Assembly (NCBI RefSeq): GCF_000446015.1
Contig: NC_022093.1
Coordinates: 30,001 to 62,000, forward strand
DNA from: Thermofilum adornatum
GTDB taxonomy: Archaea > Thermoproteota > Thermoprotei > Thermofilales > Thermofilaceae
Direction: 5' to 3'
Length of the DNA: 32,000 nt
Part shown: positions 1,978 to 13,849 of the stretch, piece after piece
Layout of the letters: each line of letters starts with the position of its first letter
How positions within the stretch are numbered: the first letter of the stretch is position 1
The notes under the pieces: generated by a model
What the model saw: only the letters and a program-made list of their open reading frames with translations
What the model was told of the DNA's origin: nothing
The model's database searches: none
Program-made: the position numbers and the translations under genes

Positions 1978-3096
1978 ATGCAGGAGCCCGTGCGTGTCGA
2001 CATAATAGTTACCTGTAAACTTGGGTTTGAACGCGTAGTTGCTTCACTCATAAAAGAGCTCTGCCCAGAATGTAGGGCCGTCCCTTCGCCAATGGGGTAC
2101 ATGGGCCTCGTCCTGGTAGAGGCACCCACACAAAACATAGAGGTGCTCGCGAACAATATAAGGGAAAAAGTTCCAGAGGCAGAAAAAGTCTTCAAAGTGG
2201 ATGCCGAGTGCAACGCTAGGCTTCAAGAGCTGGGTGAATGCGTGAAGCCCCTGGCTAGCGGGATAAGTAGCGACGAGAGCTTCGCCGTCAGGACTGTTAG
2301 GCGCGGGAAGCACGACTACACAAGCCTAGATGTAAACGCGTACATCGGCTCTGTCATAAAGGAGGCTACAGGTGCACGTGTAGACCTCGAGAACCCCGAC
2401 AAGGTTGTCCTCATACAGATCCTGCAGGACAAGGCCTATGTCTCCATTGTGCCTGGCTCCGAGTTCTACAGGAAGATGGCCCCCACAAAGTTCCCGATGT
2501 ACAAGCTATATAGGCGAATGGTCGTGACCCACGAGCCCTACCTTGGCCCGCCGGACGCCTCGTATGTGATGGGCACGAGGATTGGCAGGGAGATACAGTG
2601 CTTCGAGGTTGGAAAACTCGTTGTCGCACCAGTTGGGGCAGTCGAGGCAGAGGCTCTACAGCGTTTCCTCAGGGGGGTCATCGATGGCCAGAAGTCTAGG
2701 CTCGGCATCCAGAAAAAGAGCTATGGAAGGGAGGTCCACCGGACAGAGATACTTGTACAGGACATGTACCAGTTCGTGAGGTCTTGGCACGGGAAGCCCC
2801 TAATAATCTTTGAGCCGGAGGGAGAGCCTGTCTCTAGGGTCGGCGGTGAGCTGGCCGACTTTATCATCGAGAAGGTCTTCAGGGAGAAAAAAGAGCTCGG
2901 CGTGATGGTTGGCGCAAGGGAGGGAATCCCATCTGGGCTTTTTAGGTATGCCGACTTCGTTCTAGACGTGGCCCCCGGAGTAGTCATCTCGACCGACCTC
3001 GCCCTGACATCTGGACTCATAGCTATCGGCACGGCTGTCCACGACAAGCTCTTGGGGCTAGACCTCTCGGACGGGGTGGAAAAACTTGCCGAGTAG
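1978..3096 (+). CDS. THUMP-domain RNA-binding protein fused to a SPOUT (SpoU/TrmD-like) methyltransferase-like domain
   Basis: Start taken at the ATG at 1978 (MQEPVRVDIIV). The THUMP signature is FAVRTVRRGKHDYTSLDVNAYIGSVIKEATGARVDLENPDKVVLIQILQDKAYVSIV. The C-terminal half resembles SPOUT motifs: MVVTHEPYLGPPDASYVMGTRIGREIQCFEVGKLVVA, then GVMVGAREGIPSGLFRYADFVLDV...ISTDLALTSGLIAIGTAV. The SPOUT assignment rests on motif resemblance only. Confidence 0.6.
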   Translation: MQEPVRVDIIVTCKLGFERVVASLIKELCPECRAVPSPMGYMGLVLVEAPTQNIEVLANNIREKVPEAEKVFKVDAECNARLQELGECVKPLASGISSDESFAVRTVRRGKHDYTSLDVNAYIGSVIKEATGARVDLENPDKVVLIQILQDKAYVSIVPGSEFYRKMAPTKFPMYKLYRRMVVTHEPYLGPPDASYVMGTRIGREIQCFEVGKLVVAPVGAVEAEALQRFLRGVIDGQKSRLGIQKKSYGREVHRTEILVQDMYQFVRSWHGKPLIIFEPEGEPVSRVGGELADFIIEKVFREKKELGVMVGAREGIPSGLFRYADFVLDVAPGVVISTDLALTSGLIAIGTAVHDKLLGLDLSDGVEKLAE

Positions 3097-3286
3097 GATT
3101 GGTAAAAGGGACCCAGAAGGCTACTATGTCGTCGTTGCTAGGCGAGGCATAGAGCCTTTCCTCGAGGGCATCGGAGACATAAGGATAGAAACGCTGGGAG
3201 ACAAGGTAGTCATTAGGACAAGATCCCGAAACACAGCCCTCAGAATCCTAGAGATAGCCGAGAAGAAGGGGCTATCCTACACCTGA
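3086..3286 (+). CDS. Small hypothetical protein (66 aa), possibly translationally coupled to the upstream gene
   Basis: TTG start overlapping the last 11 nt of the THUMP/SPOUT gene. The composition looks protein-like (YYVVVARRGIEPFLEGIGDIRIETLGDKVVIRTRSRNTALRILEIAEKKGL). No family recognised. Confidence 0.4.
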   Translation: MPSRIGKRDPEGYYVVVARRGIEPFLEGIGDIRIETLGDKVVIRTRSRNTALRILEIAEKKGLSYT

Positions 3287-3372
3287 GACATAGACAACAC
3301 GTGCAACTCTCCTTAACATGCTTATGTGCGGGACCAGTAGCCACCGATCCTCTACCAGCCCACTCCAGAACC

Positions 3373-3612
3373 ATGGTGACAATAGCGTGCACAGAGGGAG
3401 TCCCGAGGAACCCGCTTGAGAGGCTTGACCTGCTGGACGAGTGCCTATGGGTTGCTCCCCGGGTAGAGCCGTTGGTGGTTTCCTTGGAGGAGTTTTTCAA
3501 GTTTTGGAAGAGGAACCCAGCGATAATTGACGCGATGCAAAGCGGTGTCGTCCTTCTCGACAATATTGGCTTAAAAGATTATTTATCGAAGATGAGGAGA
3601 GCTAGTTTCTAA
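3373..3612 (+). CDS. Degenerate minimal nucleotidyltransferase (MNT)-like ORF
   Basis: From the ATG at 3373: MVTIACTEGVPRNPLERLDLLDE...VEPLVVSLEEFFKF...SGVVLLDN. This follows the MNT layout (LFGSxARG-x9-SDxDLLVV ... vDvvv.t.eEf ... G..LyD), but GS is replaced by CT and the first Asp of DxD by Arg. The 3' end overlaps the GH3 gene convergently by 11 nt. A GTG at 3301 is the alternative start. Confidence 0.35.
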   Translation: MVTIACTEGVPRNPLERLDLLDECLWVAPRVEPLVVSLEEFFKFWKRNPAIIDAMQSGVVLLDNIGLKDYLSKMRRASF

Positions 3613-5701
3613 AGGTTTTTTCCTCGTGAATCTTGAACTCGCCTTCTAGGTGTATTCTCCGCGAAGAAGAGCCGACCATGATCTTGTAGGTTCCCTTTTC
3701 GAGGACCCATTCTTTGCCGTTGAAGCTTGCCATGTCCTTATAGCCAATAGTGAGGACTATGTCTTCGTGTTCTCCGGGCTGGAGGAGCCTTGTCTTCTTG
3801 AAGGCTTTTAGCTCTTTTTGTGGCTTGTCGATTTTTCCCTTTGGAGGCTTCACGTAGACTTGTGCGACTTCTTTTCCTGGCATTTTCCCGGTGTTTGTGA
3901 CCCTGAACTTGACTTTTACCTGTTCGCTGTCCTGCTCGATGGATAGGTCGCTGTAGGAGAAGGTTGTATAGCTGAGGCCGTAGCCGAACTCGTAGGCGGG
4001 CTCTTTGCCGAATGTGTCATAGTACCTGTACCCAACGTATATGTCCTCCTCGTATGTCACGCTCTTTGGACTGCCGGCTGGCTCGCCGCCGAACGTCCAT
4101 GAGGGGACGTCTCCCAGTGTCTTGGGGAAGGTTGTTGGGAGTTTGCCAGAAGGATTGACAAGGCCGAGGAGGGTGTCTATTATGGCTCTGCCTGCTTCTT
4201 GTCCTGGTTGCCATGCCAGGAGGATTGCGTCTACTTTTTCCCGCCAGGAAGCCACATCGATTGGTGTGCCGATGTTTAGTATGGCTACGACTGGTTTCCC
4301 GATTTTTCTGTATGCTTCCGAGACTGTGTCTATGAGCCATTTCTCGTCGTCCCTTAGGTAGAAGTCTTCTGGTGCAAGGTCCCATCCTTCACCTGAAACC
4401 CTTGTAACGACTATTACTGCCAAGTCGTTCCTCTGGGCAGTCGCGTAGATGTCTGCCTCGCCTACGACGTCCTCGGATATGCTTGGCTTGTCGGGCTCGT
4501 CCCTGTAGAAGATTTCGAGCTCCTCCTTGTATGTGGAAACTGCCTCTGCATACTTCTTGGCCAGTTCTTCGTCTATGGCTAGAGACCTCTCCCGTGCGGC
4601 ATCTAGGATCGTCGAAACGTATGGTGGATGTGTGTGCCCGCTCCCCATTCCGCCCTTGACTGTCAGGATCTGGCCGACGCCGAAGAATGCTATTTTCTTG
4701 CCTCTGTCTATGGGTAGGGCGCCCTCATTCTTGAGGAGAACCATGCCCTCGACTGCGGCCTCGTATGCTATCTTTGCATGTGCCTCTAGGTCAGGCTTCC
4801 CGGGAGTAGACTTGTAGCCGGCAGAGCCGAGGAGCTTCGAGAGGACCCTTGTGACGGCTCTGTCTATGGTTTCTATTGGTATTTTGCCTTCCCTCACTGC
4901 TTTCAATACTTGTTCGAGTTTGTCTTGTCCCCCTGGCATGATGACGTCGTTGCCCGCATTTATCTGTCTCACAACGTCTTCCCCGGCGCCCCAGTCCGTC
5001 ATTACGAAGCCGTCGAAGCCCCACTCTTCCCGTAAGACCGTGGTCAAAAGCCACTCGTTCTCTGAGCAGTGAACGCCGTTAAGCTTGTTGTATGCGCTCA
5101 TGACTGACCAGGGCTTAGCTTCCTTGACAGCTATCTCGAAGGGCTTGAGGTATATTTCACGCAGAGCCCTCTCAGATACAAAGGTGTCGAGGCCCCATCT
5201 CCCTGTCTCCTGCTCGTTGCCGACAAAGTGCTTTATACAGGCGCCTATACCTGCAGACTGGACTCCCCTTACGTATGCGGAAGCAATTTTTCCAGATAGC
5301 AACGGGTCCTCCGAGAAATACTCGAAGTTCCTGCCGCCCAGTGGATGCCTGTGAATATTCAACGCTGGAGCGAGCAAGACATCTACGCCGCAACTCCTAG
5401 CCTCTTCGCCCATAGCCTTTCCAACCTGTTCGACGAGCTCCGGGTTCCATGTCGAGGCAAGCATCACTTCTACGGGGAAAGCTGTAGCTCTGCAAGCCGG
5501 GTTTTCGATCCTTACTCCTGCGGGTCCATCTGCAAGGACGAAGCCTGGAATGTTGAGCCTCTCTATTGGATGGGTTTGTCCAGCTGCTCCTGGGACCCTT
5601 GCGAGTTGCGAGCTCGTTGTATCACCTATCCCCACGAGAATTTTGACCTTTTCTTCGATGCTCAGCTTTGACAATAATTCTTCAATTATTTGTTGACTCA
5701 T
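3602..5701 (-). CDS. Glycoside hydrolase family 3 beta-glucosidase (cytoplasmic, with C-terminal Fn3-like domain)
   Basis: 699 aa. GH3 hallmarks: KHFVGNEQE, SAYNKLNG...CSENEWLLTTVLREEWGFDGFVMTDW (nucleophile Asp in the MTDW context) and SGEGWD in the second domain. There is a C-terminal beta-sandwich tail and no signal peptide. Confidence 0.92.
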   Translation of the reverse strand: MSQQIIEELLSKLSIEEKVKILVGIGDTTSSQLARVPGAAGQTHPIERLNIPGFVLADGPAGVRIENPACRATAFPVEVMLASTWNPELVEQVGKAMGEEARSCGVDVLLAPALNIHRHPLGGRNFEYFSEDPLLSGKIASAYVRGVQSAGIGACIKHFVGNEQETGRWGLDTFVSERALREIYLKPFEIAVKEAKPWSVMSAYNKLNGVHCSENEWLLTTVLREEWGFDGFVMTDWGAGEDVVRQINAGNDVIMPGGQDKLEQVLKAVREGKIPIETIDRAVTRVLSKLLGSAGYKSTPGKPDLEAHAKIAYEAAVEGMVLLKNEGALPIDRGKKIAFFGVGQILTVKGGMGSGHTHPPYVSTILDAARERSLAIDEELAKKYAEAVSTYKEELEIFYRDEPDKPSISEDVVGEADIYATAQRNDLAVIVVTRVSGEGWDLAPEDFYLRDDEKWLIDTVSEAYRKIGKPVVAILNIGTPIDVASWREKVDAILLAWQPGQEAGRAIIDTLLGLVNPSGKLPTTFPKTLGDVPSWTFGGEPAGSPKSVTYEEDIYVGYRYYDTFGKEPAYEFGYGLSYTTFSYSDLSIEQDSEQVKVKFRVTNTGKMPGKEVAQVYVKPPKGKIDKPQKELKAFKKTRLLQPGEHEDIVLTIGYKDMASFNGKEWVLEKGTYKIMVGSSSRRIHLEGEFKIHEEKTFRN

Positions 5702-5770
5702 TAATGAACATACGGAAATGGATGGCTAAAAACCTATCTAGAATTAAAATCATGTGGGAAAAAGGAGAGA

Positions 5771-5800
5771 GGAAAAATAAAAAAAAGAGAAAAAATTATT
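5771..5800 (-). terminator. Oligo-T termination tract downstream of the coiled-coil protein gene
   Basis: The plus strand reads ggaaaaataaaaaaaagagaaaaaattatt. On the minus strand this gives T5, T8 and T6 runs starting about 12 nt after the TAA at 5812-5814. Archaeal RNAP terminates at oligo-T. Confidence 0.45.
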
Positions 5801-5811
5801 TACAGGGTTCT

Positions 5812-6933
5812 TTAGGGTCCTCTGCCTCCACCACGCATCTGGCGAGCCCTTTCACCGATGTCCTGGGTCTGCCTTGCTAACTCTCCTGGATTGTTCTTAG
5901 CCATCTCTGGGGCCTTTTCTGCAAGGTTTATGGCTTCCTGGACGAGTTCTCTAAGCTGGAGTGCCAGCTGTTTATGTGTTCCTTTAGCCCTTTCCTGTAT
6001 TCTTGCCAAGAGCTGTTCTAGTAGCTGGAGCCTGTTTCTCTGCCTTTCTAGTCCGGGAACGTTCCTTGTAACGTTTAGGAGCGTGTCTGCTGTCTTGTTT
6101 AGCAGGTATTCTTCAAACTTTCTTGCCCTCAAGGCCCTCATAACCTCGCCTACACTCGTCTCATTGACGTCTAGACCATGTCTTCTCATTTCCGCTATGG
6201 TCCTCATCGCACCTGCCCTGGCTAGCTCAGAGGTAGCTTGTCCAATGAGCTTCCTCGCCTCTGCAAGGCGGTGAGCAGACTCGTTTAAGAGACAGTTGGA
6301 TGCAAGGCTCTGGGCCTCTAGTAGCAACTGTCTAGCCTGGTTTAAGAGACGTGTAGCATTAGAGGTGTCGTACCCGCTACTCGCGGCCCTAGATGCAATG
6401 CTCTCTAGCTCATTGACGCGCTGAAGGGAGACATTAATGGCGACATATTGCGGGTAAAAGTCTGGAGACCACTTGCATGTCTCGTTTCTAACCCTATTCC
6501 TGTAGAGGTTTGCCGTCAGATTTGCCTGCTGTGGAGCCAATACTGCCCTGCATGAGGCAAAGGATGTTCCAAGCGTGTCTCTGAGTTTTTCCTGCAGGTC
6601 TAGTGCTTGACCATAGGTTCTTAGTGCTAGTACTGCGTATTGCATTGCCTGTGTAGCGTTGCCGAGGTTCAGGTACTGCTTTGCCTTGGCGAGGTAATTG
6701 TCGCCCGTTGCTGTAAGATTCACTATTTGTGTGAAAAGCTGACTGTTCTGGGAGAGATTTTGGAGCACCTGGTTGCGGCAGTATACGAGTTGCTGTAGTC
6801 TCTCTGCTGATGCTATAAGGCTTTCCGCTGGCGTTGTCACTTGTGGTGCACTGTATATGTATGCCATGGTAGCCAATAGGACTATGGCTATTATTCCCAA
6901 CGTTATTTTCTTGGAGTCAACCATGTCCATCAA
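5812..6933 (-). CDS. N-terminally membrane-anchored, all-helical/coiled-coil exported glycoprotein (hypothetical)
   Basis: Signal anchor KKITLGIIAIVLLATMAYIYS, then about 340 aa of heptad-like helical sequence. It has 11 N-x-S/T sequons (manual count), 4 Cys and a basic Gly-rich tail (RQMRGGGRGP). The listed start is TTG at 6933; an ATG follows at 6930. Confidence 0.7.
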   Translation of the reverse strand: MMDMVDSKKITLGIIAIVLLATMAYIYSAPQVTTPAESLIASAERLQQLVYCRNQVLQNLSQNSQLFTQIVNLTATGDNYLAKAKQYLNLGNATQAMQYAVLALRTYGQALDLQEKLRDTLGTSFASCRAVLAPQQANLTANLYRNRVRNETCKWSPDFYPQYVAINVSLQRVNELESIASRAASSGYDTSNATRLLNQARQLLLEAQSLASNCLLNESAHRLAEARKLIGQATSELARAGAMRTIAEMRRHGLDVNETSVGEVMRALRARKFEEYLLNKTADTLLNVTRNVPGLERQRNRLQLLEQLLARIQERAKGTHKQLALQLRELVQEAINLAEKAPEMAKNNPGELARQTQDIGERARQMRGGGRGP

Positions 6934-7012
6934 TTGACTTGTTTTTGTGGATAAACTTAAGGAATGCTGTGGAAATTAGCCTGAAAATTTAGAAATATTC
7001 TTTTCACTTTCT

Positions 7013-7930
7013 TCATTCCAGTAATTCTACGTAGTTTCTCCCCGCCTTTTTCTCTATCTTTACGTACCCAAGCTCTGCGAGCTTCTTGACCCTCCTCCAG
7101 AGAGTAGTGGGAGGCAAATTAACAGCCTTCTGTAGCTCTCCCTGGAACATGGCCCCTCCTGCTTTCCTCAAGGCATCGAGAATTGCCAAGTCTTCTTCGC
7201 CTAGCTCTACGAGCTCACTTTTCCTTTTACCCCTCAAAGCCAGGAAAACAGCAAGTGCGACAAATATAGCGGCGAGGACAACGAGGTAGGGCAAGAGTAG
7301 CCATAGTACTTCAAATAGTCCCTTAGAGGTCCCAGTCTCTTGTTTTGTGGGCGAGGCAGGAGGCTGTGTCCCTTGGGGAGGGAGAGAAGTTGCAGGCTGG
7401 TATAGTATGACGTATTTTAGCTGTAGGCTTCCTGCGGGATATTCTATTGCCAAGTTTCTTCCTATGGAGTAGATCTTCGTGGGGAGGGGGTTCATGTCGA
7501 CTGGTGTCGCGTTTACTGGCAAAACGACTTTGAGCGGGTAGGGAGAATTCACGCTTATTATCCAGAAGATTCCAGATTTGCTTGTCAAGTCTTGTGTATA
7601 GTAGGAGACGTATACTTGGCTCGAGTTAAGTGTAGCCACTGTCAAGTATCTGCCTGTTTGGTCAGTGTCGAAGGCGAGTGGGAGGCCCTTTTCGTCTACA
7701 ACTGTTACACCTAGGGTAGGGTCAGGCGTCCCGAGCAACTGAATTGTCACGGAGAGGTTTCCTTCAGTTGGAACTAAATATTCGACTTTTGCTATTCCAG
7801 CCTCGCTCAGGGTTATTGTGACTTGTGGCTGGGCAAGAGAGCTACGAGACAGGGAAATGAATGTTAGAATTAGGAAAATGATTATAAGGATGTGTACATG
7901 CCTAGGTGTATCGCGAAGCTTGCCAAGCAT
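7013..7930 (-). CDS. Membrane-tethered winged-helix transcription regulator with an extracellular beta-rich domain
   Basis: Signal peptide (HILIIIFLILTFISLSRSSLAQP), a beta-rich region of about 170 aa, a P/T/Q linker (PPQGTQPPASPTKQETGTS), a TM helix (LLLPYLVVLAAIFVALAVFLAL), the stop-transfer RGKRK, then a wHTH: EDLAILDALRKAGGAMFQGELQKAVNLPPTTLWRRVKKLAELGYVKIEKKAGRNYVELLE. Confidence 0.75.
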   Translation of the reverse strand: MLGKLRDTPRHVHILIIIFLILTFISLSRSSLAQPQVTITLSEAGIAKVEYLVPTEGNLSVTIQLLGTPDPTLGVTVVDEKGLPLAFDTDQTGRYLTVATLNSSQVYVSYYTQDLTSKSGIFWIISVNSPYPLKVVLPVNATPVDMNPLPTKIYSIGRNLAIEYPAGSLQLKYVILYQPATSLPPQGTQPPASPTKQETGTSKGLFEVLWLLLPYLVVLAAIFVALAVFLALRGKRKSELVELGEEDLAILDALRKAGGAMFQGELQKAVNLPPTTLWRRVKKLAELGYVKIEKKAGRNYVELLE

Positions 7931-8012
7931 GTTTGTATTTCAGTTAACTTATCCTAATAAAGATTTTTTTCCTTTAACACATAAGTATAAATATTGTCTA
8001 ATATGATGTTTC
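7931..8012. promoter_or_regulatory. Divergent promoter region with back-to-back TATA-like boxes
   Basis: ctttattagg (minus-strand reading of 7953-7962) lies 23-32 nt upstream of the ATG at 7930. agtataaatatt (7984-7995) lies 18-35 nt upstream of the GTG at 8013 / ATG at 8019. The whole interval is AT-rich. Confidence 0.45.
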
Positions 8013-11000
8013 GTGGCTATGCGGGGAAAGCTTTCATTATTAATCATTGTTCTGGCTTTAAACTTAGTTGCCGTTACCCTTCTCGCACAGCCAACCTATA
8101 GCTCTACACACTTCGATGTATACGACAAGGCAGGCGCTGGACTAGCGTATGCACAGAGCATTGCAAATGCTCTTGAATCGGGATACTCTTCACTTATTGG
8201 TGCGGGGGCTAGCCTGGCCCCGCCGTGTAGTGGAACAAAATACAATGTAACGATAGTGAATCTTAGCGGCGAAGGAGGAGAAGTTAGGTCAAGCTTTCTC
8301 TATGATCCATCGACGGGAAGGATTACCAAGGCCTGCATATCCTACATACTGATGGCTACTGGTCTAAGCGGCTCAACGTTGAACCATATTGCTTACCACG
8401 AGATGGTGCACCTTGCCCAGGCTTCATACTACCAGTACATATCAGTTGTAAGTAGCTACCCCTGGTATGTCGAGGCAAACGCAGAAGGCGTCTCAAGCGC
8501 GCTCTCTGGGGTTTGCGGATGGGAGCCGTGGTACTTCTCCTATTCCCTCTACACAACTAATCCGTACAGCTACAGCGATGGAAACACGCAGTCCTACGCG
8601 TATGGGGCACTCTACTACTGGCTTATCAAAAGTGGAGCCGCATCAGTGCCAGGCACGCTTTCGGGAAGCTTCTCGGGGAGCACCACGAACTCTGACTGGG
8701 TCAATTCAAACTATGTATCCTTCTTGCTGGCCATAACCAAGGGAATAGGCATATGTGGAAAAACCTACTATCCAAGCTACCAGACCGCGACCCTTACGGG
8801 CAACTCTTGGACAACGAGCCTGTCCCTCGATGGGCTGAGCGCCGCATACTACAAGATAACGCTACCAGCCCCAGGAACAGTTGCCATTACGGCTACTGGA
8901 AACGTGAAGAGCAATCTACAGTTGAGCCAGCCCTTCTATGTTTCCAACAGTTCCCTCATATTGGCAATAGTAAACCCGTCTACCTCTAGCATCACCTCTC
9001 AGGTCACGGTAACCTATTCGCCTCCACTCATAGCTCGGGTCGTCAGTGGAGTATATAAGCCGCTTTCCGGCACCCTCACGCTCCAACTCTCGATAACATA
9101 CGCGAACCAGCCAGTCACCGGGACAGTCACGGTTAACGGCCAAAGCGTCCAGGCAAGCAACGGCCAGGCCACTGTCACATTTAGCAATGTAACCTGGGGA
9201 AGCTTCCACATAGACGTGTCCTATTGGTCAGACACCTACAGCTTTGACCTTGCATTGAACAAGCCCACCCTCTCATGGGTAACACAGACACCCCTTTACT
9301 TGACTGGCAACGGCTACGGGTTCATTGTCCTCTCGATAAATAACCCCAGCCAGGTATCCATAGAGACAAATGTCGCCGCCGTTTCGCCCATGAACGGCTC
9401 AACGCCTGTCCTAGCGTTCCAAAACCCCAACATGACTGTAACTTTTCCGCCGGGCCAAAGCACGCTTCAATTCAGCTTCAATGTGAACGGATTTGTCTCG
9501 CAGGGAGACGGGTACATCTATCTATACACGGGCCCAAACGACAAGCTTTCAACAAGCTTCCAGGTTAAGCCAGCTTCGATAAGCATCCTCTCGGCGAGCT
9601 ATGACACATCCATTGACAAAACAAACATACAGGTAGCCGTCCAGCCCGCCGGGATAACACAAAGCATAGACATCAAGGGCACTTCTGGAAGCCTCCAGGT
9701 CAAGCTCTCGACCTATACTGTTGGAACATTGGCCTTCAGTATTCCATCCCCAAATGTGGTGCTACAGGCTTCACCCCAAATCGTGGCGCCCCTGTGGTTC
9801 ACTGCAAGCCTACAAGCAACACTAACGGTCAGCGGGCAATGCCCAAGCTTCCCTGTAGACTACAGGATACAGCTAAAGGTAAACGGGACAGAGGTGGGCG
9901 GCAAGGTGTTTAAGTGCGGCGAGACGGCTTCGCTAAGCAACACCCTAAACCTTACCAGGACCACGGCAGACACATATACACTCGTAGCAAACAATAACCC
10001 TGCCTGGGCCACAAAGGTCAGGATCTGGCTACCCAAGATACAGGTCTCACTAAAGAAGTGGACAGTGACCGACAATGGGAGCAACGTCGTCTTGCAGGTA
10101 AGCGTAAGTGGGTCACACAGGTACCTCGTGTTGGGGCGAATAGTCTCGAACGAGAGCTTTGAAATCTCCTATGACCTTCCGGCCGGAAACAAGACACTAG
10201 TGCTGGACACAGGCTTCGAGAAGAGGGAAATCGGGATGCCTCCCGTGATACTTAAAGTCTATGCTCCAGAAATTGTCCTGCGCCCCTACCTAGTGAACTA
10301 TTCACTGAGCATAAATACAAACGCCACTGTAAAGGCAAGGGTAAAGATACTGCTAAACGGCACCACGATAGGTGAAGCCCTCTTCGACGCCGAGAAAAAC
10401 ATCTCTACCGTAAAGCTGAGCACTGTGCCAAAGGCTCCGGGAGCATACGTCCTCCGTGGGGAAGCATGGTTCGCCAGAAACGAGACAATTTTCCTCTATG
10501 TAAGCATAAACGGAGTCAAAGTCTCTGCGGACAGGTTTAGGCTCCTCGGAACCAATACCACGATTACGGCCTACCTCTTTATCTATCCTAGGATACCGGC
10601 AAGCATAAACCTGACACTTGCTGGGTGCGGCCTGTCCACATTCAAAAAGGTGCCGGCAAACAGCACAATCAGCTTGGGCTTCGCAGAGCCCTGCACGCTA
10701 ACAGTCAAGGCACAAGTCCTCAACTACACAGACCAGGCAACTGTCTACTGGGACGTCCTCAACCTCTACTTAGCAGGGCAACTAGGCTACATGGGGGCCG
10801 AGCCAGTAATAGGCAACGGGACAGTCAGGGGGGAGGCCAAGTTCTCCAACGGCACACTTGTCCCGGGAAAAGTCACCGTAAATGGTGAAAGCGAGGTCTA
10901 TGTCCCCGACACGGGTGAGAAGATTTTCCAGCTAAGGGTCGAGTACATGGGCGTAAGCAACGAGACAACTGTAAAGGCTTTCCTCGTGCCCGCCAACCTC

Positions 11001-11327
11001 TATCTCGAAGCCCTAAACATATCGAGGAAGCTATCATCCTCAGAGAACCTCGCCAAGGAAATAAGCATCGCGACAGTCACGGGCAGGTGGGACAAGGTTG
11101 CACGCGCGGTAAGCCTCTACAGGGAGCTGGAAAAGGGTAGCAACCTCGACCCACTAAACGTCCTCGCGGCGAAGCTCTACGAGAAGTGGTCAGCCCAGGG
11201 AGACGACTCGTTGATCGGCTACGTAGAGTTCTTGAACAGGAACAAGATACCAATATATGCCGGAATCCTCTCGGCCGTCTCCGGGATTGCCTACCTCGTG
11301 GTGCGCAGGCGGAAAGCAAAGACCTAG
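8013..11327 (+). CDS. Giant surface-anchored glycoprotein with an N-terminal HExxH (MA-clan metallopeptidase-like) domain and beta-rich repeats
   Basis: Signal peptide (KLSLLIIVLALNLVAVTLLAQP); HEMVH at 8397-8411 with PWYVEANAEG 20 residues later; about 900 aa of Ser/Thr/Val-rich beta repeats with about 24 N-x-S/T sequons (manual count); a helical stalk; a C-terminal TM (IYAGILSAVSGIAYLVV) and basic tail RRRKAKT. The start is GTG at 8013 or ATG at 8019. Confidence 0.85.
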   Translation: MAMRGKLSLLIIVLALNLVAVTLLAQPTYSSTHFDVYDKAGAGLAYAQSIANALESGYSSLIGAGASLAPPCSGTKYNVTIVNLSGEGGEVRSSFLYDPSTGRITKACISYILMATGLSGSTLNHIAYHEMVHLAQASYYQYISVVSSYPWYVEANAEGVSSALSGVCGWEPWYFSYSLYTTNPYSYSDGNTQSYAYGALYYWLIKSGAASVPGTLSGSFSGSTTNSDWVNSNYVSFLLAITKGIGICGKTYYPSYQTATLTGNSWTTSLSLDGLSAAYYKITLPAPGTVAITATGNVKSNLQLSQPFYVSNSSLILAIVNPSTSSITSQVTVTYSPPLIARVVSGVYKPLSGTLTLQLSITYANQPVTGTVTVNGQSVQASNGQATVTFSNVTWGSFHIDVSYWSDTYSFDLALNKPTLSWVTQTPLYLTGNGYGFIVLSINNPSQVSIETNVAAVSPMNGSTPVLAFQNPNMTVTFPPGQSTLQFSFNVNGFVSQGDGYIYLYTGPNDKLSTSFQVKPASISILSASYDTSIDKTNIQVAVQPAGITQSIDIKGTSGSLQVKLSTYTVGTLAFSIPSPNVVLQASPQIVAPLWFTASLQATLTVSGQCPSFPVDYRIQLKVNGTEVGGKVFKCGETASLSNTLNLTRTTADTYTLVANNNPAWATKVRIWLPKIQVSLKKWTVTDNGSNVVLQVSVSGSHRYLVLGRIVSNESFEISYDLPAGNKTLVLDTGFEKREIGMPPVILKVYAPEIVLRPYLVNYSLSINTNATVKARVKILLNGTTIGEALFDAEKNISTVKLSTVPKAPGAYVLRGEAWFARNETIFLYVSINGVKVSADRFRLLGTNTTITAYLFIYPRIPASINLTLAGCGLSTFKKVPANSTISLGFAEPCTLTVKAQVLNYTDQATVYWDVLNLYLAGQLGYMGAEPVIGNGTVRGEAKFSNGTLVPGKVTVNGESEVYVPDTGEKIFQLRVEYMGVSNETTVKAFLVPANLYLEALNISRKLSSSENLAKEISIATVTGRWDKVARAVSLYRELEKGSNLDPLNVLAAKLYEKWSAQGDDSLIGYVEFLNRNKIPIYAGILSAVSGIAYLVVRRRKAKT

Positions 11328-11861: not shown

Positions 11862-12395
11862 GTGGTGTTGGTGTCTGGAGATCCGAAGATCTTGCGGGAC
11901 GTTTTGCTTGCTTCTGGGAGGCGTGTCAAGCTCTATCGTAGAATAGTTGAGGCCGATGGGAAAACGTTTGAGAAAGACCTCGTTGTATTTGGGTCTAGTG
12001 TGGTGATTGTCCCGGTGCTTGGTGATGGGAGAATTGTGTTTGTCAGGCAGTGGCGCGCCTCTATTGCTGGTTGGGTTCTCGAGTTGCCTGCTGGGAGGGT
12101 GGAGCCCGGAGAAGACCTGTTGGAGGCTGCTGGTAGGGAGCTGGTTGAGGAGACTGGGTTTAGGGCTGGGTCGCTTAGGGTTCTGGGGAGCTTCTATGTG
12201 GCGCCCGGCTATAGTGACGAGGTTATAAGTGTGGTTAGGGCTGACGGTCTGGTGGAGGGCCAGTCGCGTCCCGAAGAGGGGGAAGTGCTTAGGACTGTGT
12301 TTATGAGGCCTGAGGAGTATCTTGGATTGCTGGGTAAGGAGACTCTCGACCTCAAGAGCATCGCGGGTGTTCTCCTGTACATGTCGACTGGGTGA
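11862..12395 (+). CDS. Nudix hydrolase, ADP-ribose pyrophosphatase-like
   Basis: Nudix box GRVEPGEDLLEAAGRELVEETGF (G-x5-E-x7-REUxEExGU), with QWRASIAG..LELPAG upstream and PGYSDE downstream, as in NudF-type enzymes. GTG start. Confidence 0.85.
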   Translation: MVLVSGDPKILRDVLLASGRRVKLYRRIVEADGKTFEKDLVVFGSSVVIVPVLGDGRIVFVRQWRASIAGWVLELPAGRVEPGEDLLEAAGRELVEETGFRAGSLRVLGSFYVAPGYSDEVISVVRADGLVEGQSRPEEGEVLRTVFMRPEEYLGLLGKETLDLKSIAGVLLYMSTG

Positions 12396-13849
12396 AGGGC
12401 TTGGGGCTGAAGACTTCTGGTCTCCTCTTTTATGCAGAGAGGATATACAGCACTGTTGTCGGCTTCCTCTTTATATTGCTGGTCACGAGGAATCTCTCAC
12501 CCGAAGAGTTCGGCGCCTGGAGTGTCTTGTCTTCTATCCTTACATATGCTTGTCTAGCTACTTTTACGAATTACTGGGTTACGAGGCTCAGGGCTAGGGG
12601 GGTAGTGGAGGCTACTACTAGCGGCTTAGTGCTTTCCCTCATTTTTACGCTTGTGGGTGCGGGCGCTCTCCTAGTGCTGATGGATAGGATAGCTATTGAG
12701 TTCAGCGTCCCCGCGTCTTCACTCTTCATTATTCTTTTCTATGTGCCAGTCATTTATCTGAACTCGACTATTTATGCGAGCCTCTACGCCGTCAACCCTT
12801 CAAGGGCCGCCATATCGGAGTTTCTCTTCGAGACGGGTAAAATCGTCGTTGCAGGTGCCTTTTGGCTGGCTGGGAGGATAACTCTGAACACGGCTCTGCT
12901 GGCAGTTCTTGGCGGCCACATTTCCCAGTTTGTGTATCTATTCGTATCTATGAGGAGAGACTTCTCTGTGAGGCCGAGGAAAGAAGTTGTGGGGAAGATT
13001 TTGTCCTTCTCGGTATTTAACGTTTTGACCCAGCCCGCTTCTCTTATTGCGAGCCTCGACGTGCCGCTCATCTCATATGTCATAGGAAACCTTGCAGTGG
13101 CATACTATACAGTCGTAAACACTTTCTCGAACCTCGTCGCTTATTCCTATGTCCTCGCGAGGGGGCTTCTTCCCACGATGTTGCAGACAGACGAGAAACA
13201 TGTCCATTTGAGGAGTATAGAGGAGTCGCTGAGGCTTGTCCTTCTATTAGGTGTCCCTTCACTTGTAGGCGTACTGTTCCTCGCCCCGAACCTCCTGTAC
13301 CTGTTTAGGCCTGAGTATGCCGTTGCCGGTGACGTTCTCAGGCTCGCATCTTTCTCGGCCCTGATTGGAAGCATTAGTGGTGCCCTAGGCGACGCGTTGC
13401 AGGGGATAGAGAGGGCTGACATAGAGGGTAAACCACTGAGAGAAGTAGCTCGATCGCGGATATTCAAGGTGTTCATGCTTGGTTACCTAAGGCTAGCGGT
13501 CGGGTTCCCAATTCTCATCGGGGTAGTTACAGCGATAAGGGACCCGCTGAGGGCAGCCTTATTTGCAAGGGGCGCCTGGCTAATGGGAGACATCGCGGTA
13601 CTTATTGTGCTGGCCATATGGACCCGCAAACTTGTAGACTATAGAAAGATGGGGGCAATCGTTCTCAAGTATCTCGTGGGATCGCTTCCAGCGGCGACCG
13701 TTGCGTGGCTCATAAATCCTCTCAAGATAAGAGAGGCGCTACTTGCCGTGACCCTTGCGGGGGCCATATACTTTGCTATCGTATACTTGTTGGACTCCTG
13801 GTTTAGGAGGCACTTTGCCATGCTATTATCACGCCTGAAGAAAGGTTGA
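12392..13849 (+). CDS. MOP-superfamily polysaccharide/oligosaccharide flippase (Wzx/Polysacc_synt-like)
   Basis: 485 aa with at least 12 hydrophobic segments. The N-terminal pattern (TVVGFLFILLVTRNLSPEEFGAWSVL) is typical of polysaccharide-biosynthesis flippases. The GTG start overlaps the Nudix stop (GTGA, 12392-12395). Confidence 0.72.
   Translation: MKGLGLKTSGLLFYAERIYSTVVGFLFILLVTRNLSPEEFGAWSVLSSILTYACLATFTNYWVTRLRARGVVEATTSGLVLSLIFTLVGAGALLVLMDRIAIEFSVPASSLFIILFYVPVIYLNSTIYASLYAVNPSRAAISEFLFETGKIVVAGAFWLAGRITLNTALLAVLGGHISQFVYLFVSMRRDFSVRPRKEVVGKILSFSVFNVLTQPASLIASLDVPLISYVIGNLAVAYYTVVNTFSNLVAYSYVLARGLLPTMLQTDEKHVHLRSIEESLRLVLLLGVPSLVGVLFLAPNLLYLFRPEYAVAGDVLRLASFSALIGSISGALGDALQGIERADIEGKPLREVARSRIFKVFMLGYLRLAVGFPILIGVVTAIRDPLRAALFARGAWLMGDIAVLIVLAIWTRKLVDYRKMGAIVLKYLVGSLPAATVAWLINPLKIREALLAVTLAGAIYFAIVYLLDSWFRRHFAMLLSRLKKG

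Follow-up and report, generated by a model that had tools for sequence, protein, structure and literature searches.

A predicted membrane-tethered Lrp/AsnC-like regulator paired with an exported helical protein, beside a gluzincin-like surface protein, in Thermofilum adornatum

Introduction

To our knowledge, how archaea turn what they sense outside the cell into transcription is poorly understood, and few of their membrane-bound regulators have been characterised. Three neighbouring genes on the chromosome of Thermofilum adornatum raise this question in a concrete form (NCBI RefSeq GCF_000446015.1, contig NC_022093.1, positions 30,001 to 62,000; this whole stretch of 32,000 nucleotides is referred to as the window, and positions are counted from its first letter). 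They encode an exported helical protein (gene (i)), a membrane-tethered winged-helix regulator (gene (ii)) and, divergently from the regulator, a very large surface protein with an HExxH head (gene (iii), here called the giant). The initial annotation, made from the sequence of the window alone, joined all three into a self-contained, undescribed cell-surface module in which the regulator controls the giant through the spacer at 7931-8012 and the helical protein could serve as a stalk or partner. Do the three genes belong together and, if not, which gene does the regulator act on? Here, we hold it on balance probable, if only by a little, that the locus combines two independent things: an envelope-signalling pair of regulator and helical protein, and an unrelated surface peptidase that happens to be its neighbour.

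Membrane-bound regulators of the one-component kind, known as transmembrane transcription regulators, are common in Thermoproteota according to a census of the class (PMC10269533), and ArnR and ArnR1 of Sulfolobus acidocaldarius are archaeal members (PMC6396743).

Results

Genome and metagenome scans yielded 43 loci of the regulator family (L numbers below stand for these and for other loci), and 16 of its members were aligned. A word-indexed homology search for relatives of the giant returned only 12 proteins, each of about 1,100 aa and from Thermofilum or Thermofilaceae, while a profile of its head domain, run against 1.8 billion representative proteins, returned 45 distant relatives, 43 of which were tabulated. 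Taxa are sampled only narrowly in these comparisons. Proteins identical to those of the window are encoded on CP007493.1 and in several Thermofilum metagenome-assembled genomes. The three open reading frames lie where the initial annotation had placed them, all three encode envelope proteins, and their features are collected in Table 1.

Judged from its sequence, the product of gene (ii) is built like a transmembrane regulator of the one-component kind. The signal peptide, beta-rich ectodomain, P/T/Q linker, transmembrane helix and winged helix that had been annotated are borne out by periodicity, hydropathy and a match to Pfam HTH_24 (35.3 bits against a cut-off of 21.9). All 16 aligned members match HTH_24 and HTH_AsnC-type models; on the window protein the latter reaches 17.5 bits, below its cut-off of 27, and the best E-value among members is 1.7e-10. 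The transmembrane helix and the signal sequence were called from hydropathy, and both are kept across the alignment. Three N-glycosylation sequons in the ectodomain are widely retained (N58 in 14/16 aligned homologues, N140 in 13/16 and N102 in 11/16), and W278, R279 and R280 of the recognition helix are invariant in all 16. The PDB entries that the winged helix matches by sequence are archaeal Lrp/AsnC DNA-binding domains, with PH0140 and FL11/PH1519 (1ri7) among the top ones. The protein combines a predicted DNA-binding domain with at least one predicted transmembrane region, two of the three properties by which the census delimits transmembrane transcription regulators (PMC10269533); on the third, regulation of transcription from the membrane, the operator-like palindrome conserved before the adjacent gene bears only indirectly.

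We rejected a ToxR-like receptor (ToxR/CadC/TcpP) for this protein. Such receptors start with a cytoplasmic OmpR/PhoB-type winged helix, followed by one transmembrane helix and a C-terminal periplasmic sensor; here the domains come in the reverse order, with DNA binding assigned to the C terminus, and a Trans_reg_C/OmpR-type Pfam match is absent. Membership of the classical Lrp/AsnC proteins (feast/famine regulatory proteins) was likewise rejected: the RAM (AsnC_trans_reg) domain is missing, and the similarity is limited to a winged helix that is C-terminal and membrane-tethered. A defence-system or viral origin is unsupported, given that PADLOC returned only generic Csa3/CARF-type winged-helix similarity for gene (ii) and PHROGs returned nothing meaningful.

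The product of gene (i) begins with a hydrophobic segment (aa 10-27) that may be a stable anchor or a cleaved signal peptide, leaving the protein either anchored or soluble. Its hydrophobic periodicity peaks at 3.52 residues, which supports a helical, coiled-coil-like product, and helix is favoured over strand in 75% of sequence windows. It contains exactly 11 N-x-S/T sequons (2.9 +/- 1.5 in shuffles) and four cysteines, of which C51 and C127 are invariant across nine homologues; counts and periodicity agree with the helical protein originally described. ATG 6930 is its likely start because database copies measure 370-372 aa, and the TATA spacing also favours it. Searches of Pfam, NCBIfam, PADLOC and PHROG matched the protein to no family, and a PDB profile search retrieved designed or low-complexity helical proteins only. 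We considered and rejected a SlaB-type S-layer stalk, which comprises a signal peptide, beta-sandwich domains, a coiled coil and a C-terminal transmembrane anchor: the hydrophobic segment of gene (i) is N-terminal, and the window copy has no C-terminal transmembrane helix and no beta domain. The homologues at L012 8411-9838 and L013 8391-9818 are 475 aa long; in them an extra beta-rich domain of about 100 aa, Ig (immunoglobulin)-like in appearance, separates the N-terminal hydrophobic segment from the helical region.

Regulator and helical-protein genes lie side by side in four Thermofilaceae lineages, the regulators of which are 32-58% identical to that of the window, and they occur in three gene orders overall: regulator first in the window clade with L025 and in L029/L030, helical protein first in L012/L013 and in L034/L037/L040/L045, and convergent in the Bathyarchaeota loci L015, L047 and L048. 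In Bathyarchaeota, the 300-aa partner is a homologue of the helical protein (hhalign probability 96%, E 2e-9). At L039/L041, 5-7 kb separate the regulator from the helical-protein homologue. The two genes also appear to be lost together. At L053 4580-4940, 5' of an intact giant that is 78% identical, all that is left of the regulator is a piece covering aa 4-71, and of the helical protein a piece covering aa 131-177; here the pair has decayed to a pseudogene and the giant has been retained. P0028, a 214-aa in-frame fusion of regulator aa 61-176 and helical-protein aa 279-373 on a 3,855-nt JGI (Joint Genome Institute) metagenome contig, corresponds to window 5812-7750 and equals a deletion across both genes; it is either a natural deletion or an assembly chimera. 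Joint loss in L053 and P0028 fits a dispensable, functionally coupled pair.

Conserved non-coding DNA accompanies the helical-protein gene. Alignment of the DNA upstream of helical-protein genes revealed an invariant TG[AG]AAAG core inside a GRAAA-N5-TTTYC palindrome, and this palindrome is present at each helical-protein gene with readable upstream DNA (six lineages). It is followed by TTTTC/TTTCC half-sites spaced roughly 10 bp, about one helical turn, and then by a TTCC[AG]CAG-N-ATTCCTTA element that merges into the TATA-like box 22-32 nt before the start codon; in the window, this box resembles the CCTTAAA-type boxes found about 25-30 nt 5' of starts in related loci. The pattern TGRAAAGNNNNTTYC has one match in the 32-kb window (6992-7006, minus strand) against 0.12 expected, and in about 600 kb of fetched loci it occurs solely 5' of helical-protein genes, apart from one stray match. 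A one-mismatch search found the variant TGGAATGCTCATTCC at the equivalent position in L029/L030, the Bathyarchaeota loci have TGGAACGGCCGTTCCA, a perfect palindrome that adjoins the proximal element, and L039/L041 have two TGAAAAG...TTTTC units 5' of the helical-protein homologue that is detached from the regulator. The TATA-proximal element of 17 bp is exact or one base off in four of the six lineages, Bathyarchaeota among them. Across about 640 kb of loci, exact copies (TTCCRCAGNATTCCTTA) are confined to the DNA 5' of the helical-protein homologue in the window, L025, L029/L030 and Bathyarchaeota L015, and L047 and L048 differ by one base. The element is thus identical between Thermofilum and L015, where the proteins are only about 27% identical. 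Non-coding conservation that tracks the helical-protein gene through three gene orders and differing upstream neighbours indicates a dedicated transcription-factor site.

Where the regulator and the giant face each other, the picture is different. Their 82-bp spacer with back-to-back TATA-like boxes can be read directly in the sequence as annotated, as can the oligo-T tract after gene (i), but window motif searches found zero copies of the operator motif at 7931-8012. The conserved motif sits instead before the helical-protein gene, so that the annotated control of the giant through this region is not upheld, and what the regulator probably acts on is gene (i) as opposed to gene (iii). Near regulators that lack a helical protein, no exact or one-mismatch operator match was found; a GTGAAAG...CTTTATCCTTAAG sequence at L010 resembles the operator only loosely. 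The start of the giant is likely ATG 8019, as opposed to GTG 8013 of the open reading frame list, because the database copy has 1,102 aa, and the TATA spacing agrees. The transcripts of all three genes look leaderless. Past the stop codon of gene (i), T6, T9 and T5 runs all lie within 40 nt; oligo-T tracts are sites of archaeal transcription termination.

Table 1 Features of the three genes and their control regions in the 32,000-nt window.
Feature	Position	Strand	Remarks
Oligo-T terminator-like tract after helical-protein gene	5770..5811	-	minus strand ...TTTTTTCTCTTTTTTTTTATTTTTCC; direct reading
Helical protein ('CC'), open reading frame	5812-6933	-	373 aa from TTG 6933 in open reading frame list
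Helical protein, likely start	5812..6930	-	ATG 6930, 372 aa; predicted exported, all-helical, heavily N-glycosylatable
TATA-like box CCTTAAGTTTA of helical-protein gene	6952..6962	-	22-32 nt 5' of ATG 6930; by position and similarity only
Conserved promoter-proximal element TTCCACAGCATTCCTTA, 17 bp	6958..6974	-	unique in window even at 2 mismatches
Operator-like palindrome TGAAAAGAATATTTC (GRAAA-N5-TTTYC)	6992..7006	-	7 nt past regulator stop, ~40 bp 5' of TATA-like box
Predicted single-pass (type I) transmembrane transcription regulator	7013..7930	-	305 aa; signal peptide, ectodomain, linker, transmembrane helix, winged helix
Regulator, cytoplasmic Lrp/AsnC-like winged helix	aa 242-303, nt 7022-7207	-	Pfam HTH_24
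Regulator, transmembrane helix	aa 208-232, nt 7235-7309	-	RGKRK directly after
Regulator, beta-rich ectodomain	aa 35-180, nt 7391-7828	-	beta-type periodicity; P/T/Q linker, then transmembrane helix
Regulator, signal peptide	aa 1-34, nt 7829-7930	-	ends ...SLA/QP
Divergent intergenic region	7931..8018	.	two TATA-like boxes; direct reading
TATA-like TTTATTA, regulator side	7955-7961	-	28 nt from ATG at 7930
TATA-like TATAAATA, giant side	7986-7993	+	24-30 nt from 8013/8019
Membrane-anchored surface protein with gluzincin-like head (giant)	8013..11327	+	1104 aa; probable start ATG 8019
Giant, signal peptide	aa 1-25	+	sequence
Giant, peptidase-like domain	aa 26-243, nt 8088-8741	+	HEMVH aa 129-133 (8397-8411), E154 (8472-8474)
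Giant, about nine Ig-like domains	aa 244-992, nt 8742-10988	+	AlphaFold beta-sandwiches
Giant, helical bundle of five helices	aa 994-1076, nt 10992-11240	+	AlphaFold model
Giant, transmembrane helix	aa 1078-1099, nt 11244-11309	+	basic tail RRRKAKT after

The giant keeps other company than the pair. It stands beside the regulator only in the window clade (L001-L006, L022-L024) and in L025, the latter with giant, regulator, helical protein and the glycosidase gene GH3 all syntenic at 55-65% identity (giant about 60%, regulator 55%). Seven loci have it with neither regulator nor helical protein: L007 of Thermofilum pendens, L008, L009, L054 and L055, in all of which its neighbours are unrelated, and two of Pyrobaculum type. 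Between the giant and the THUMP methyltransferase gene, the window has a block that T. pendens lacks, consisting of small open reading frames, GH3, the helical protein and the regulator. On the other side, the giant is followed (window 11862-13849) by a gene for a NUDIX hydrolase and, overlapping it, one for a polytopic membrane protein of 485 aa and no Pfam family; both are also found near the T. pendens giant (L007 10643-12658) and mark the ancestral synteny of the giant. The giant therefore lacks the co-localisation expected of a self-contained module, with regulator-free loci and L053 as the telling cases, and the helical protein is tied by conserved adjacency to the regulator as a candidate partner and not to the giant.

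The giant family ranges over Thermofilaceae and Pyrobaculum. In Pyrobaculum islandicum (L058, CP000504.1, 1-9549), the 1,182-aa P0054 is a full-length homologue (hhalign E 4e-59, 975 columns) encoded divergently from an operon for proteins of 638 and 2,656 aa, and in L057 1-6591 the 1,196-aa P0048 diverges from an operon for proteins of 635 and 2,676 aa. The 2,656-aa protein matches a colossal Pyrobaculum S-layer protein (bioRxiv 10.64898/2026.08.21.746120) in size, the likeness being one of size alone, and the L057/L058 locus may be the conserved S-layer-protein neighbourhood described there.

From its sequence and structure models, the giant is predicted to be a gluzincin-like metallopeptidase that is anchored in the membrane and displayed at the surface on an Ig stalk. 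The AlphaFold model of the whole protein (mean predicted local distance difference test score (pLDDT) 83) has an alpha/beta head at aa 27-243, and in the alignment of homologues the N-terminal 250 residues are the most conserved part. The signal peptide, HExxH motif, stalk and transmembrane anchor of the initial annotation stand, as do the 24 sequons (12.8 +/- 3.2 in shuffles), whereas the beta region, given there as about 900 aa, comes to about 750 aa by AlphaFold. In the head, HExxH is followed after 21 residues by a glutamate (E154) on the following helix, which is the gluzincin arrangement, in which the Glu that forms the third zinc ligand lies about 18-25 or more residues past the motif; the model places E154 and E158 on helix 151-165, next after the active-site helix 120-139. 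H129, E130, H133, E154 and E158 are invariant in 12 homologues, the glutamates within an invariant PWYVEAxAEG. Among the 43 tabulated distant relatives, 36 retain HExxH, most of them with a downstream W-x-x-E visible by eye, and the seven without it are five fragments below 130 aa and two variant proteins (P0052 and P0058). Modelled alone, the head reaches a pLDDT of 90.9 and a predicted TM-score of 0.90, and its best 50 Foldseek matches in the PDB are all MA-clan zinc peptidases: M30 lugdulysin (E 6e-4, TM-score 0.50), M9 collagenases, M1 LTA4H and aminopeptidases, with matrix metalloproteinase catalytic domains at ranks 47-48. The HExxH domain thus looks like a genuine metallopeptidase domain, and the annotated suggestion that the giant is possibly proteolytic gains from the invariant residues and, more modestly, from the fold matches.

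Some searches added little to this assignment. The giant matches none of the M30, M9 and M1 sequence models and no PDB entry by sequence; PDB profile searches with it returned only CARDB-like beta domains and spurious designed repeats, and Foldseek with the whole 1,104-aa model was dominated by generic multi-Ig proteins and is uninformative. The 10 distant relatives run against Pfam match none of its families. Many of the distant relatives of the head are short (350-560 aa) and carry a Thr-rich linker and a C-terminal transmembrane helix; in P0057, P0059, P0064, P0065, P0067 and P0072 (370-460 aa), HExxH and the downstream Glu are kept and Thr/Val-rich repeats (TVTVT...) replace the Ig stalk. 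Such relatives with other linkers suggest that the head is a mobile module set on different stalks.

Discussion

We infer the binding of the regulator to the palindrome, the direction of regulation, the signal, the feedback, and the catalysis and substrates of the giant from this comparison, as follows. The regulator would hold a glycosylated beta-rich domain outside the cell and an Lrp/AsnC-type winged helix at the cytoplasmic face of the membrane. As a dimer or higher oligomer, the winged helix would bind the palindrome at 6992-7006 and the phased TTCC half-sites down to the TATA-like box, and would thereby control transcription of the helical-glycoprotein gene when an external or envelope cue is sensed. 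For this binding the regulator would be the most economical choice because of its Lrp/AsnC-type winged helix, the invariant W278, R279 and R280, the FL11 half-site and the conserved adjacency. At archaeal promoters, a regulator site upstream of the TATA box suggests activation, and activation would be likelier than repression here since the site lies about 40 bp 5' of the TATA-like box. The helical protein would be the output of the circuit and may feed back on the outer domain of the regulator, as CpxP does on CpxA or ToxS on ToxR. The giant, in turn, would be a zinc metallopeptidase held off the membrane on its Ig-like domains that probably degrades or processes proteins at or beyond the S-layer, and it would stand beside the pair only through lineage-specific synteny.

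Several observations weigh against parts of this account. The divergent layout of giant and regulator is retained at 55-60% protein identity in L025, and a lineage-specific regulatory link between them could exist. The regulator occurs without the helical protein in six loci (L010, L011, L026, L027, L031 and L032), where deacetylase and enolase-superfamily genes flank it, and there it must therefore have other or additional targets. The palindrome has a spacer of 5 bp as opposed to the 3 bp typical of Lrp-type sites, and a factor other than the regulator could bind it. The palindrome pattern was derived from the same promoters in which it was then searched, making the specificity test partly circular; the sites in Bathyarchaeota, L029/L030 and L039/L041 were found after the pattern was set. 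For the giant, the Foldseek E-values of the head are marginal (6e-4 at best) and the TM-scores only about 0.5, which makes the fold evidence consistent and numerically modest, and Pfam and NCBIfam peptidase models are unmatched by the giant, its 11 homologues and 10 distant relatives.

The reading from which we started, a single surface module in which the regulator senses a cue and acts on the giant by way of the 82-bp divergent region that the two share, the helical protein being a stalk or partner, now appears very unlikely. Its attraction lies in the divergent giant and regulator genes with their TATA-like boxes back to back, and in a layout of giant, regulator, helical protein and GH3 that L025 preserves. 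Against this, the giant does without either partner in T. pendens, L008, L009, L054, L055 and the Pyrobaculum-type loci and is intact beside decayed remnants of both in L053, the regulator family lacks the giant in all lineages beyond the window clade and L025, and the spacer between giant and regulator lacks the operator-like motif and shares only the TATA box of the regulator with L025. Divergent transcription from a short spacer is weak evidence of co-regulation. A different objection concerns the pair itself: regulator and helical protein may be physical membrane partners in a sensor complex, with the promoter elements bound by a different factor or with a winged helix that makes protein contacts and does not bind DNA. 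Adjacency fits a protein complex equally well, the six loci without a helical protein can be read in its favour, and the palindrome spacing differs from that of classical Lrp sites (PMC2715240). We nevertheless regard it as unlikely, because the basic recognition-helix residues are kept in every aligned member, the winged helix exceeds the Pfam cut-off as a DNA-binding helix-turn-helix (HTH), the GAAA/TTTC half-site is that of the closest solved relatives (PMC2715240) and the motif tracks the helical-protein gene across three gene orders.

For the giant, the rival is a surface protein with a structural or adhesive role, such as an S-layer component, in which the HExxH head would be a binding module and no enzyme. 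The Ig-like domains, C-terminal transmembrane helix and basic tail resemble S-layer proteins of the PySLP type (bioRxiv 10.64898/2026.08.21.746120), the Pyrobaculum homologue adjoins the operon for 638-aa and 2,656-aa proteins of S-layer-protein size, and peptidase Pfam models are unmatched. However, the S-layer protein predicted for T. pendens in two preprints is the 1,711-aa A1RY64 (one of them in the supplement of bioRxiv 10.1101/2024.05.28.596244), whereas the T. pendens orthologue of the giant is A1S136, and we rejected the giant as the Thermofilum S-layer protein. Moreover, the metal ligands and the catalytic Glu are invariant across the family while the stalk diverges, a pattern expected of selection on catalysis. 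A non-enzymatic giant is accordingly quite improbable in our judgement, and we keep to a regulator/helical-protein pair beside a separate surface peptidase.

Neither the pair nor the giant is categorically new, in contrast to the undescribed system that had been proposed. The regulator is a new family and topology within a known kind. As in transmembrane transcription regulators generally, a DNA-binding HTH and a membrane span share one polypeptide that presumably acts from the membrane. ArnR has its HTH at the N terminus and its membrane helices at the C terminus; in the window regulator the DNA-binding domain is instead found at the C terminus, behind a cleavable signal peptide, a beta-rich outer domain and a single transmembrane helix (type I). 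We know of no member of this family that has been studied. ToxR-ToxS, TcpP-TcpH and CadC are bitopic membrane regulators, and CpxP is a helical periplasmic protein, with its gene beside the sensor genes, that is both target and modulator of CpxAR. Like regulators of the ToxR-ToxS, TcpP-TcpH or CadC type, the window regulator is encoded next to an exported partner, and the likeness to CpxP lies in the partner being helical and exported. Unlike in ToxR, its topology is inverted and its domain is Lrp/AsnC/MarR-like, not OmpR-like; sequence homology to the ToxR and Cpx systems is absent, and unlike in these, the host is an archaeon with promoters of the TATA/BRE (transcription factor B recognition element) kind and the partner is a large predicted glycoprotein. 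In its putative DNA recognition the regulator resembles FL11-type Lrp/AsnC proteins, with palindromic GAAA/TTTC half-sites, multiple phased sites and the best sequence matches to the winged helix (PMC2715240). The optimum of Pyrococcus FL11 (PDB 1ri7) in SELEX (systematic ligand evolution through exponential enrichment) is CCGAAA[AAT/ATT]TTTCGG (PMC2715240). Unlike Lrp/AsnC proteins, the window regulator has no RAM ligand-binding domain and is membrane-tethered with an extracellular domain, and the spacer of its putative site is 5 bp, not 3.

The giant resembles gluzincins (M30 lugdulysin and hyicolysin, M9 collagenases, M1 LTA4H and aminopeptidases) in HExxH and a Glu about 21 residues on, and its predicted fold may match theirs; it differs from M30, M9 and M1 in having no sequence-level membership and in that its head sits on an Ig stalk some 750 aa long and its C terminus is anchored in the membrane. 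STABLE, the protease on the tetrabrachion stalk of Staphylothermus marinus, and pyrolysin are envelope-bound subtilisin-type serine proteases of hyperthermophilic archaea. Like these, the giant would be a protease that a peptide-using hyperthermophile displays in or at its S-layer, away from the membrane; unlike STABLE, which is of the serine type and bound to an S-layer stalk, it carries its own stalk and anchor. With PySLP (bioRxiv 10.64898/2026.08.21.746120) it shares tandem Ig-like domains, a C-terminal transmembrane helix and a basic cytoplasmic tail, but it has a peptidase-like head, a helical bundle in place of the membrane-proximal beta-hairpin, and is not an orthologue of A1RY64. The giant represents a family, so far uncatalogued and found across Thermoprotei, of gluzincin-like proteins that are stalked and anchored in the membrane. 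With the Pyrobaculum operon as context, it is a candidate for a role in foraging for protein, or in the processing of surface proteins, in hyperthermophiles that depend on peptides.

For the regulator family, the 15-bp palindrome, the 17-bp promoter-proximal element and a single conserved target gene offer a testable hypothesis. A bolder proposal, which we put forward tentatively and consider doubtful at present, is an archaeal envelope-sensing circuit, so far unrecognised, that spans classes (Thermofilaceae and Bathyarchaeia), in which a type-I tethered Lrp-type factor reads a cue from outside or from the envelope and drives a secreted helical glycoprotein that feeds back on its sensor. If true, archaea would have a counterpart of CpxP/CpxA or ToxS/ToxR logic, and the conservation of its operator from class to class would make it directly testable.

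Neighbouring genes

Further genes near the pair, the regulator or the giant were noted in individual clades. The surrounding chromosome is saccharolytic and rich in toxin-antitoxin genes, and nothing around the three genes points to a mobile element; the flanks of the window as mapped in L001 comprise an RHH/PIN toxin-antitoxin pair, a MazE-like antitoxin, a PaREP1 protein and GH113 and GH3 glycosidases. The GH3 enzyme encoded downstream of the helical protein (window 3602-5701, minus strand; L025 10351-12444) is cytoplasmic, and in L035/L038 genes for GH1 and an MFS transporter are convergent with the regulator (L035 8809-11657). Beta-glycosidase genes thus lie beside the pair or the regulator in two lineages, which may reflect a regulon or coincidence. 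At L037 3978-5177, and also in L040 and L045, genes that Pfam assigns to YbjQ (putative heavy-metal-binding) and a cation-efflux (CDF) transporter precede the pair, and the helical proteins of this clade have His/Gly-rich tails, a possible hint at metal. The CDF/YbjQ, GH1/MFS and GH3 neighbours were not used as evidence because each is restricted to one clade. About 1 kb 5' of the giant homologue in L009, on the opposite strand, a gene at 2984-4885 encodes a 633-aa winged-helix protein with HTH_5, HTH_20, DUF7347 and HVO_A0261_N matches, the architecture of which is unrelated to that of the window regulator.

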